Shown here piece by piece: positions 7,759-9,906 of a DNA stretch of 32,000 bases; the stretch's first letter is position 1, and the number at the start of each line of letters is the position of its first letter. The stretch covers positions 1,950,001-1,982,000 of the forward strand of contig NZ_CP011391.1 in assembly GCF_001564455.1 (NCBI RefSeq). The letters are read 5' to 3'. The position numbers and the translations under genes were made by a program. A model generated the notes under the pieces. That model searched no databases, was not told where the DNA came from, and worked only from the letters and a program-made list of their open reading frames with translations. This DNA comes from Faecalibaculum rodentium. GTDB lineage: Bacteria; Bacillota_I; Bacilli_A; Erysipelotrichales; Erysipelotrichaceae.

Positions 7759-9906
7759 ATGACTGACTACGAGACATTCCGGCAGAAGGTGCGGACCCTG
7801 GCGGAAGACAACATCCCGCCCATGGCCATGGACCTGGACCTGAACGACAAGTTTCCCCGGGAGTTCGTGAAGCAGATGGCCGATGCCGGTCTCATGGGAC
7901 TGCCCTATGAAACGGAGTACGAAGGTGCCGGCGCAGATGTGAAATCCTACGCCATTGCCGTCGAGGAACTCTCCCGCGTGGATGGTGGCATCGGCGTCAT
8001 CCTCTCTGCTCACACTTCCCTGGGCACCTACCCCATTGCCCATTTCGGAAACGAGGAACAGAAGCGGAAATACCTGCCGGATATCGCCTCCGGCCGCAAA
8101 CTGGCTGCCTTCGGCCTGACAGAGGAGAATGCAGGCAGTGATGCCGGCGGCACAGAGACCACAGCCGTGAAGGACGGGGATGACTATATCCTCAACGGCA
8201 GGAAGATCTTCATCACCAATGCCCCGGAAGCCGACACCTATGTGGTGTTCGCCAGCACGGATCCCGCAAAGGGCACCCGCGGGATTTCGGCGTTTATCGT
8301 CGAAAAGGACATGCCCGGATTCACCTTCTCGAAGCCCTATGACAAGATGGGCATCCGGTCCTCCTGCACAGCGGAGCTGCAGTTTGACAACGTGCGTGTC
8401 CCGAAGGAAAACCTGCTGGGGCTCGAAGGACAGGGCTTCAAGATCGCCATGGCCACACTGGATGGCGGGCGCATCGGCATTGCCGCCCAGGCACTGGGCA
8501 TCGCCCAGGGTGCGTATGAGGATGCCCTGGCCTATGCGAAGGAACGCGTGCAGTTCGGCGCTCCCATTGGCATGAACCAGGGGATTTCCTTCAAGCTTGC
8601 GGATATGGCCACAAAGCTCGAGGCTGCCAGACTGCTGGTCTATCAGGCGGCGGAGCTCAAGCAGGCGAGCAAGCCGTATTCCAAGGAAGCGGCCATGGCG
8701 AAGATGTATGCCTCGGACATCGCCCTGGAGGTCTGCAACGACGCACTGCAGATTTTCGGCGGCAGCGGTTATCTCAAGGGAATGGGCGTGGAACGACGGT
8801 ACCGGGACGCGAAGATCACCACGATTTACGAGGGAACCAACGAGATTCAGCGGGTGGTCATTGCAAGTCACATCCTGGGCAAGATGAAAAAATCCGGAAA
8901 GGAAACCGAAAAGAAGGCGCAGATGATCGACGAGCTGTCACTGGAGGCATCGGTGAAGAAACTGGTATCTATCCTGCGGCAGAAAGGACTCGGCGAACCG
9001 GAGGCGGTGGATGCCCCCATTGCGTCCGCGAAGAAGATCCTGGCAATCGGCCAGGGTGCCGGCAATGTCCGGAATGCGAAAGCTGCCGAAGAAGTTGCGA
9101 AAGCCATGGGCTTTGTCTTTGCGGGTTCACGCCCGGCGGCAGAGGTGCATCACTTCATGGGCATGGACCGGTATATCGGCCTGTCGGGGCAGAAAACCCA
9201 TGGAGACCTGTACATCGCAGCGGGTATCTCCGGTGCGGTGCAGCACCTGAAGGGCATTGAAGATGTGACAACGGTGGTGGCGATCAACACGGATCCCAAT
9301 GCGCCGATTTTCAAACGGGCAGACTACGGCATTGTCGGGGATATGAACGTCATCCTGCCCATGCTGGCAAAGGAGCTCTCCGGACAGGAACCCGGGACAC
9401 CGGGGCAGCTGATGGTCTGCAGTCTGTGCGGCTATGTCTATGACCCGCAGGTGGGTGATCCGGAGAACGGTGTCAGCGCAGGCACGGACTTTGCGGCCCT
9501 GCCGGCGGACTGGGTATGTCCGGTATGCGGCGCAACGAAGGATCTGTTCGAACCGGCCGAGGAACCGGAGGCAGAGCTTGTCGAGACCGAAGAAGTGACA
9601 GCTTCTGCGACGGGTCCTGTCTGGACGTGCAGTCTGTGTGGTTATGTCTATGATGGAGAGGTTCCGTTCGAAGATCTGCCCGGGGACTGGACCTGTCCGA
9701 TGTGCGGGGCAACGAAGGACCTGTTCACATGTGAAGGCGCGGCGATGGAAGAAGCAGCTGTGGAAGAAAAGGAAGAGGGCGCCCCTGTCTGGACGTGCAG
9801 CCTGTGCGGCTATGTCTACGACGGAGAGATCCCCTTCGAAGAGCTCCCGGCAGACTGGGTTTGCCCTGTATGCGGTGCGGGAAAGGACCTGTTTGAAAAG
9901 AGCTGA
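7759..9906 (+). CDS. Fusion protein: short-chain acyl-CoA dehydrogenase + ETF-alpha C-terminal FAD domain + three rubredoxin domains
   Basis: Single 715-aa ORF with RBS AAGGAGA.
- aa 1-378 (7759-8892): ACAD, with [12 protein letters not shown] and the catalytic-base motif [10 protein letters not shown].
- aa ~420-541 (9016-9381): ETF-alpha FAD domain ([44 protein letters not shown]).
- aa 551-598, 621-657 and 677-713: rubredoxins, each with CSLCGY...CP(V/M)CGA. Confidence 0.9.
9619..9897 (+). repeat. Tandem duplication encoding rubredoxin modules 2 and 3
   Basis: 9619-9729 and 9787-9897 encode [14 protein letters not shown](V/I)PFE(D/E)LP(G/A)DW(T/V)CP(M/V)CGA(T/G)KDLF. The DNA copies differ mainly at synonymous third positions. 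Confidence 0.85.

Follow-up and report, generated by a model that had tools for sequence, protein, structure and literature searches.

The closest described system to the gene studied here is BCR (FN1424) of Fusobacterium nucleatum, in which a butyryl-CoA dehydrogenase (Bcd), the C-terminal domain of the electron transfer flavoprotein (ETF) subunit EtfA, and a rubredoxin (Rd) are joined (PMC12288474, PMC12528894, PMC12630350, PMC13404960). Together with the adjacent class-A flavodiiron protein (FDP) FN1423, FN1424 constitutes an alpha4beta4 complex, the butyryl-CoA:oxygen oxidoreductase BOOR (Bystrom and Wolthers, Biochemistry 2024, as related in PMC12288474, PMC12528894, PMC12630350, PMC13404960). 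In BOOR, electrons run from butyryl-CoA via a first and a second FAD to the Rd and on to the FDP, where O2 is reduced to H2O, and the cofactors of the prototype are two FADs and the Rd iron (PMC12288474, PMC12528894, PMC12630350, PMC13404960). BOOR gene pairs of Lachnospiraceae and Faecalibacterium adjoin genes for an Rrf2 regulator, thioredoxin, rubrerythrin, and ribonucleotide reductase (PMC13404960). Here, we describe a gene in a 32,000-nt stretch of the Faecalibaculum rodentium genome (contig NZ_CP011391.1, positions 1,950,001 to 1,982,000; in the following "the window") that encodes a fusion of an acyl-CoA dehydrogenase (ACAD), an EtfA C-terminal domain, and three Rds. The protein very probably belongs to the BCR family and shares its internal path from acyl-CoA via two FADs to Rd, and its features suggest, as the reading that we favor, a butyryl-CoA:rubredoxin oxidoreductase that feeds enzymes for the detoxification of O2 and reactive oxygen species (ROS) encoded elsewhere in the genome.

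The open reading frame (ORF) at 7759..9906 of the plus strand starts with ATG and encodes 715 residues without interruption, and the protein has an exact database match, AMK55287.1 (UniProt A0A140DXB0) of F. rodentium. Its cluster at 90% identity comprises 296 members from many contigs, with the identical protein in NCBI, ENA, and Logan assemblies, and orthologues from other samples with 99% (locus L001) and 86% identity have the same length of 715 aa and the same synteny. The gene and its modules are arranged as follows:

7744..7749, plus strand: Shine-Dalgarno sequence AAGGAG, 9 nt 5' of the ATG, kept in the 86% orthologue
7759..9906, plus strand: BCR-type fusion gene, 715 aa, F. rodentium AMK55287.1 (ORF, exact match, domains)
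7759..8889, plus strand: short-chain acyl-CoA (butyryl-CoA) dehydrogenase module, aa 1-377, with Glu358 (Pfam, 5OL2_C, phmmer)
8911..9381, plus strand: EtfA domain II (alpha-FAD domain), aa ~385-541, without domain I (ETF_alpha, NCBIfam, tblastn)
9382..9411, plus strand: short ETF-Rd1 connector without the basic APPMxKMKR motif (alignment; pLDDT <50 at 543-548)
9412..9555, plus strand: Rd1, canonical, aa 552-599, with C554, C557, C587, and C590 (Pfam, Cys sites)
9556..9615, plus strand: acidic disordered linker 1, aa 600-619 (pLDDT <50; 45% amino acid identity to the orthologue)
9616..9729, plus strand: Rd2, short, aa 620-657, with C624, C627, C646, and C649 (Cys sites; pLDDT ~80)
9730..9783, plus strand: acidic disordered linker 2, aa 658-675 (pLDDT, divergence)
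9784..9897, plus strand: Rd3, short, aa 676-713, with C680, C683, C702, and C705 (tandem copy of Rd2)

An initial annotation, made from the sequence alone, had described one uninterrupted 715-aa ORF with a complete short-chain ACAD, only the C-terminal FAD-binding domain of ETF-alpha, and three Rds, and the domain scan that it proposed indeed recovered all three kinds of module. The dehydrogenase part is covered by the three Pfam domains Acyl-CoA_dh_N (residues 3-112, E 4e-37), Acyl-CoA_dh_M (117-212, 6e-29), and Acyl-CoA_dh_1 (224-372, 1e-52), and the motif YEGTNEIQ with the catalytic glutamate E358 is invariant in 63 family members. The module is 60% identical to the C. difficile Bcd chain 5OL2_C, on which it superimposes with a TM score of 0.97 and an rmsd of 1.4 Å (Foldseek against the PDB; phmmer against the PDB, 5e-140), its active site is Bcd-like, and no family-specific change was seen. 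The following domain is recognized as ETF_alpha at residues 421-501 with 71.7 bits against a gathering cutoff of 27, and the residues of its FAD site (S457 R458 P459, S476 G477 Q478, S491 G492 H496) are again invariant in the 63 members. NCBIfam EtfA models cover residues ~385-541, which corresponds to the C-terminal part of EtfA only, and in tblastn the canonical EtfA of Sporomusa matches the window solely via its residues 277-392; residues 1-276, i.e., domain I, gave no match in the window. An etfB gene was likewise not found in the window, neither by Pfam analysis of the large ORFs nor by tblastn with Sporomusa EtfB (best E 0.62), in agreement with what had been annotated. With EtfA domain I and EtfB absent, bifurcation is impossible. 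The presumed ~40-aa linker between dehydrogenase and ETF domain was only partly borne out, as most of it is the start of EtfA domain II and the truly disordered connector is restricted to residues ~378-383.

Pfam Rubredoxin passes on three stretches (1.7e-38), which contain three Fe(Cys)4 sites of the CxxC...CxxC type at residues 554-590, 624-649, and 680-705. Rd1 is a canonical PF00301 domain with 37 residues from the first to the last cysteine and ~29 between the knuckles. The three Rds on acidic linkers had thus been recognized correctly, but it had been overlooked that Rd2 and Rd3 are loop-deleted: they span 26 residues from the first to the last cysteine with 18 between the knuckles, owing to an 11-residue deletion, and they retain both cysteine knuckles and the aromatic core and also match RUBY_RBDX. 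Rd2 and Rd3 are a tandem duplication with a period of 168 nt and 77% nucleotide identity. An extra cysteine, C658 (window 9730-9735), follows Rd2 in the sequence DLFTCEG; the 86% orthologue lacks it (DLFTAEG), and it is probably incidental.

All three Rds are under selection. Nonsynonymous divergence (dN) was computed on a codon alignment of the window gene with the 86% orthologue; synonymous divergence (dS) is ~1 in the long domains and saturated in short segments, and segments were compared by dN and amino acid identity only:

ACAD region: dN 0.04, 93% amino acid identity
ETF region: dN 0.08, 84% amino acid identity
Rd1: dN 0.17, 77% amino acid identity
Rd2: dN 0.10 (0.096), 82% amino acid identity
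Rd3: dN 0.05 (0.046), 89% amino acid identity
Three Rd-flanking connectors (543-551, 600-619, 658-675): dN 0.37-0.49, 44-56% amino acid identity

Nonsynonymous change in Rd2 and Rd3 is thus 4-10 times slower than in the adjoining linkers, and therefore the short Rds are maintained rather than decaying. An AlphaFold model based on an alignment of 63 sequences (mean pLDDT 84, pTM 0.57) shows confident ACAD, ETF, and Rd folds, and pLDDT values below 50 are predicted at 378-383, 543-548, 602-618, and 661-674. With these low-confidence segments between folded modules, the Rds of the model look like beads on a string. The PDB contains no full-length BCR or BOOR structure, and Foldseek returned ACAD chains only.

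The BCR family is abundant in gut Firmicutes and compact. A search for proteins with the same domain order, another suggestion of the initial annotation, found ACAD, ETF_alpha, and Rubredoxin together in 120/120 of the top clusters at 90% identity, and the entire family falls into one cluster at 50% identity. A scan of genome contigs returned mostly ordinary bcd-etfBA operons and ~14 usable true fusions, the best with 60-65% identity. The number of Rds does vary: of the 120 best homologues, 113 carry a single Rd, one carries two, and six carry three. The latter are of two kinds, as the Faecalibaculum proteins combine one long with two short modules, and P0004 and P0022 carry three long ones.

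For the analysis of FDP linkage, ORFs were called in every fetched locus and compared with the sequence of an FDP. In 12 loci (Oscillospiraceae, Peptoniphilaceae, Levyella, and others), the BCR gene is followed after 9-80 nt by an FDP gene in the same direction. No FDP was detected within 8-10 kb of the gene in the window and of its orthologues, nor at L007, L008, L010, L094, L096, and L098. The alignment of the ETF-Rd region separates the two groups. FDP-linked BCRs have a basic connector of 40-44 aa with the consensus GEKKP-APPM(V/K)KMKR..PKK, whereas the connector of unlinked BCRs is acidic, 24-38 aa long, and lacks the APPMxKMKR motif. In the F. rodentium protein, an acidic/neutral linker of 25 aa without the motif leads from DYGIVGD to the first cysteine. 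The 120 homologues comprise ~89 proteins with long and ~31 with short linkers, and the multi-Rd proteins are without exception among the latter. Three blind predictions from linker type turned out correct: P0088, a long-linker protein of Faecalicoccus, which belongs to one family with Faecalibaculum, is encoded 10 nt upstream of an FDP gene, and no FDP was found at the loci of the short-linker proteins P0024 and P0020. In total, an FDP gene is adjacent in 13/13 loci with the long basic linker and was not found within 6-10 kb in 10/10 short-linker lineages, whereby the sequences are related and hence do not represent 23 independent trials. In a rough neighbor-joining tree, unlinked forms occupy at least three separate positions, and Rd expansions likewise occur at three or more. 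These data suggest a two-subtype rule in which FDP adjacency can be predicted from the linker and only the orphan subtype has multiplied its Rds. The APPMxKMKR linker is an empirical signature from this analysis and no published criterion, and in the four articles that describe BOOR, the primary 2024 paper aside, we did not find the rule. The F. rodentium BCR thus differs from the known form in being FDP-unlinked, motif-less, and equipped with three Rds, two of which are loop-deleted.

Some loci of the orphan type and of related fusions deserve mention. Thioredoxin genes flank the orphan BCRs of the nearest relatives outside Faecalibaculum (L007 9359-9685 and 12461-12787; L008 7515-7841), and these neighbors of two orphan relatives would fit a redox-stress role. 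In L008, an aldehyde dehydrogenase gene comes next, 140 nt downstream. Downstream of the orphan BCR P0020, L101 5411-6820 encodes a 469-aa FAD-dependent oxidoreductase-like protein (FAD-depend_C; faint Pyr_redox_2/DAO) that may be a partner of P0020 and was not seen at other orphan loci. Rd-less fusions of ACAD and EtfA domain II with 556-563 aa are encoded by L015 7988-9679, L020 9980-11650, and L021 2083-3762, the first of which, from Peptoniphilus, is located directly upstream of a complete BCR-FDP pair, and similar proteins of 520-555 aa occur among the representatives (P0150, P0151, P0156). P0136, P0137, P0140, P0141, P0145, and P0146, which are among the best-scoring representatives, have 740-800 aa with two separate ACAD matches and appear to be tandem double-ACAD fusions.

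Substrate, direction of electron flow, and acceptors of the fusion protein are proposals that we draw from sequence comparison. In the proposed mechanism, the FAD of the ACAD module would take electrons from butyryl-CoA or a close short-chain acyl-CoA, with Glu358 as catalytic base, and single electrons would pass to the FAD of EtfA domain II and from there to Rd1, then to or alongside Rd2 and Rd3. Because there is neither a linked FDP nor the linker segment that tracks with FDPs, we infer that no fixed alpha4beta4 complex is formed. Instead, the Rds, with Rd2 and Rd3 on flexible acidic tethers, would hand electrons by collision to enzymes of the FDP, rubrerythrin, or superoxide reductase type whose genes lie elsewhere in the genome. 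Additional tethered Rds would increase the local concentration and the reach of the carrier and may make up for the lost fixed complex. For this acceptor model, a collisional handover to unlinked Rd-dependent O2/ROS reductases, we regard the chances as evenly balanced. F. rodentium is annotated with a full pathway from acetyl-CoA to butyrate and with separate EtfAB genes (PMC4752744), and butyryl-CoA is thus plausibly available. Literature specific to F. rodentium on rubredoxin, FDP, or rubrerythrin was not found. The non-bifurcating path from acyl-CoA via two FADs to Rd that the initial annotation had predicted agrees with the BOOR prototype, and the second of its two alternatives, an acyl-CoA oxidation that delivers electrons into the Rd/O2-detoxification pool, has been demonstrated experimentally for the F. 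nucleatum BOOR (PMC12288474, PMC12528894, PMC12630350, PMC13404960). Its statement that no member of this architecture had been characterized was wrong in view of FN1424, characterized in 2024, and the term "self-contained" went too far, since the characterized enzyme depends on a separate protein as terminal oxidase and the window encodes no such oxidase.

The fusion gene is monocistronic; an intrinsic terminator was not found 3' of it on the plus strand. Two elements lie close by:

6905..7612, minus strand: divergent GntR/HutC-type regulator (wHTH and UTRA), 235 aa (Pfam; start as in the L001/L003 gene calls)
10411..12310, plus strand: insertion sequence (IS) with DDE_Tnp_1_6 transposase ORF 10497-12110, ~500 nt after the fusion stop codon

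Pfam analysis of the large ORFs places ABC transporter genes, a GDSL lipase gene, a gene for a CysK-like PLP enzyme, and a small lipoprotein-like ORF upstream, with the divergent regulator between the latter and the fusion gene. Downstream, the IS is followed by the minus-strand genes prfB, secA, ydjC, luxS, mutY, and mannose-6-phosphate isomerase, and further along the window by two-component systems, sugar-binding proteins, and a large GH32/FIVAR surface protein. No FDP was detected in the 32-kb window (Pfam of large ORFs; tblastn best E 0.30), and its large ORFs include neither a rubrerythrin nor an NADH:rubredoxin oxidoreductase (NROR), nor catabolic genes alongside the fusion (Pfam). The regulator scores with 58.9 bits for GntR and 95.6 bits for UTRA, so that its annotation as GntR/HutC with a UTRA domain was correct. 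The substrate-inducible control that had been suggested on this basis is unproven, because the link of GntR to the fusion is confined to Faecalibaculum—it was seen in both Faecalibaculum lineages and in no other lineage examined—and because no inverted repeat that could serve as GntR operator was found in the intergenic region. When this region was aligned with that of the 86% orthologue, only -10-like TATACT elements and the Shine-Dalgarno sequence were conserved. In the 99%-identical strain, a 17-nt tandem duplication, GCTATACTGAATAAAAA, is present in L001 (~9953-9986) relative to window 7729-7745; GCTATACTGAATAAAAA spans a -10-like TATACT just 5' of the fusion Shine-Dalgarno sequence, and the duplication could alter expression between strains. 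The IS (transposase domains DDE_Tnp_1_6/DDE_Tnp_1/DUF772; GC ~0.49 vs. 0.57 in the flanks) separates the fusion gene from the 3' end of prfB. The 99%-identical locus L001 does not have this IS, which is thus strain-specific and outside the fusion system. The idea that it had split a BCR-FDP operon was rejected, as prfB lies directly downstream in the IS-free L001. At the far end, the minus-strand ORF 27296-31996 reaches almost to the window end and encodes a surface protein of at least 1566 aa with GH32 N- and C-terminal domains, 3-keto-disaccharide hydrolase-like domains, Big_2, Laminin_G_3, and four FIVAR repeats; it is likely a fructan hydrolase anchored to the cell wall.

Several points weigh against an oxidase-feeding butyryl-CoA:rubredoxin oxidoreductase. 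The redox potentials of the butyryl-CoA/crotonyl-CoA and Rd couples lie near each other, and therefore the partners set the direction of flow. The best NCBIfam model for the fusion is AcrC (acryloyl-CoA reductase), with 483 bits under its cutoff of 640, so that another C3-C5 acyl-CoA could be the substrate, and the genes nearby (the cysK-like gene, GntR, prfB, secA) give no hint of oxidative stress. What connects linker type with FDP adjacency is a correlation, observed in sequences that are related to each other, and an FDP-docking role of the APPMxKMKR motif is our own reading of the alignments.

Among the alternatives, an ordinary BOOR fares best, in which the protein forms a dedicated complex with an FDP encoded elsewhere and the additional Rds are near-neutral duplications. 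Operon splitting is common, the core of ACAD and ETF is 59-66% identical to that of FDP-linked BCRs, and the duplication of Rd2/Rd3 is restricted to the lineage. However, the basic linker of 40-44 aa that is present in 13/13 FDP-linked BCRs is missing, multi-Rd forms arose repeatedly and in unlinked lineages only, and the 4-10 times lower dN of Rd2 and Rd3 compared with the linkers, at dS ~1, speaks against neutrality. We therefore consider this explanation unlikely. The enzyme might also operate in reverse as a non-bifurcating crotonyl-CoA reductase whose Rds are charged by NROR or another donor, a possibility raised by the closeness of the two potentials, which makes a reversal thermodynamically possible, by the similarity of the ACAD to Bcd and AcrC, its nearest relatives and physiological reductases, and by the lack of an adjacent FDP, which leaves the gene without an associated oxidase. 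Yet the sole characterized family member works oxidatively, separate EtfA and EtfB proteins are annotated for energy-conserving reduction (PMC4752744) so that a non-conserving bypass would be wasteful, and an NROR-like gene is present neither in the window nor beside any of the 10 orphan lineages, which makes reverse operation quite improbable. Slightly less credible still is a catabolic dehydrogenase without a role in stress, acting on another small acyl-CoA (propionyl/acryloyl, branched-chain, or substituted) sensed by the GntR/UTRA protein. AcrC as the best model, although under its cutoff, would fit this, as would the small-molecule effectors that GntR/UTRA regulators bind and the position of a GntR gene beside the fusion in both Faecalibaculum lineages, but the ACAD shares 60% identity with C. 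difficile Bcd and no family-specific change was seen in it, the GntR adjacency is absent outside Faecalibaculum, an operator palindrome was not found, and catabolic genes are not co-located. An assembly or frameshift artefact joining separate genes, finally, can be dismissed with near certainty, as nothing speaks for it and the identical protein occurs on many contigs in NCBI, ENA, and Logan, the 86% orthologue also has 715 aa, and the fused architecture recurs in more than 100 clusters.

Starting from the preferred oxidative function, a more general idea can be formulated, which we regard as tentative in each of its parts. The orphan multi-Rd BCRs may represent a functionally distinct class of acyl-CoA-driven Rd reductases that would employ their flexible string of tethered Rds to pass electrons from butyryl-CoA to several unlinked O2, H2O2, and superoxide reductases, a possibility with less in its favor than against it. 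It is similarly doubtful, albeit conceivable, that the fixed BOOR complex was given up via loss of the basic docking linker, and we would only cautiously suggest that NROR was effectively replaced as the entry into the stress network in some Erysipelotrichaceae. If these ideas hold, the linker motif would predict in which of the butyrate producers of the gut the oxidation of butyryl-CoA is coupled to a dedicated oxidase. A genuine split of the family would by itself make a short linker motif a simple tool for metagenome annotation, and would suggest butyryl-CoA as a general reductant of the Rd pool in some anaerobes. BOOR-type enzymes divert butyryl-CoA from butyrate formation to O2 detoxification and hence matter for how well gut commensals tolerate oxygen and how much butyrate they produce. 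F. rodentium itself is a mouse commensal that has been studied widely and is tied to host effects mediated by short-chain fatty acids. As basic architecture and function had been published already, the advance is incremental.

In comparison with known systems, the F. rodentium protein has the same domain order as the BOOR component FN1424—a Bcd-type ACAD, the EtfA C-terminal FAD domain, and rubredoxin—and the same predicted electron path. This comparison with FN1424 is one by description, and sequence kinship was measured on FDP-linked homologues. The F. rodentium protein has three Rds, two of them loop-deleted, whereas the prototype has one; its gene lacks the adjoining FDP gene of BOOR and has a divergent GntR/UTRA regulator; and relative to the FDP-linked homologues examined, the protein is devoid of the basic 40-44-aa APPMxKMKR linker. 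The bifurcating Bcd-EtfAB complexes (C. difficile 5OL2; A. fermentans 4L1F) are related through their ACAD (56-60% identity, TM 0.96-0.97) and through EtfA domain II, the carrier of the shuttling alpha-FAD, which is retained in the fusion. The fusion is without EtfA domain I and EtfB, i.e., without the bifurcating beta-FAD and the NADH site, and its partner is a fused rubredoxin, whereas ferredoxin or flavodoxin is the partner of Bcd-EtfAB.

A two-domain rubredoxin, AlkG of the Pseudomonas alkane hydroxylase systems, is a precedent for linker-joined tandem Rds, but AlkG serves an aerobic hydroxylase system as a free carrier, has no flavoenzyme fusion, and contains no loop-deleted modules. In the chains from NROR via Rd to FDP or rubrerythrin in clostridia and Desulfovibrio, Rd is likewise a one-electron hub, from which diiron oxidases and peroxidases are supplied (PMC12288474); the predicted electron source of the fusion is acyl-CoA (about -10 mV) instead of NAD(P)H, and its Rd is covalently tethered to the reductase. 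The tethering of Rd in an O2-detoxifying chain is, finally, what the fusion would have in common with Rd-fused FDPs, the flavorubredoxin type and those of C. difficile and T. vaginalis (PMC6033852, PMC9364112), with the difference that these proteins carry Rd on the oxidase, and the F. rodentium fusion carries three Rds on the donor dehydrogenase.

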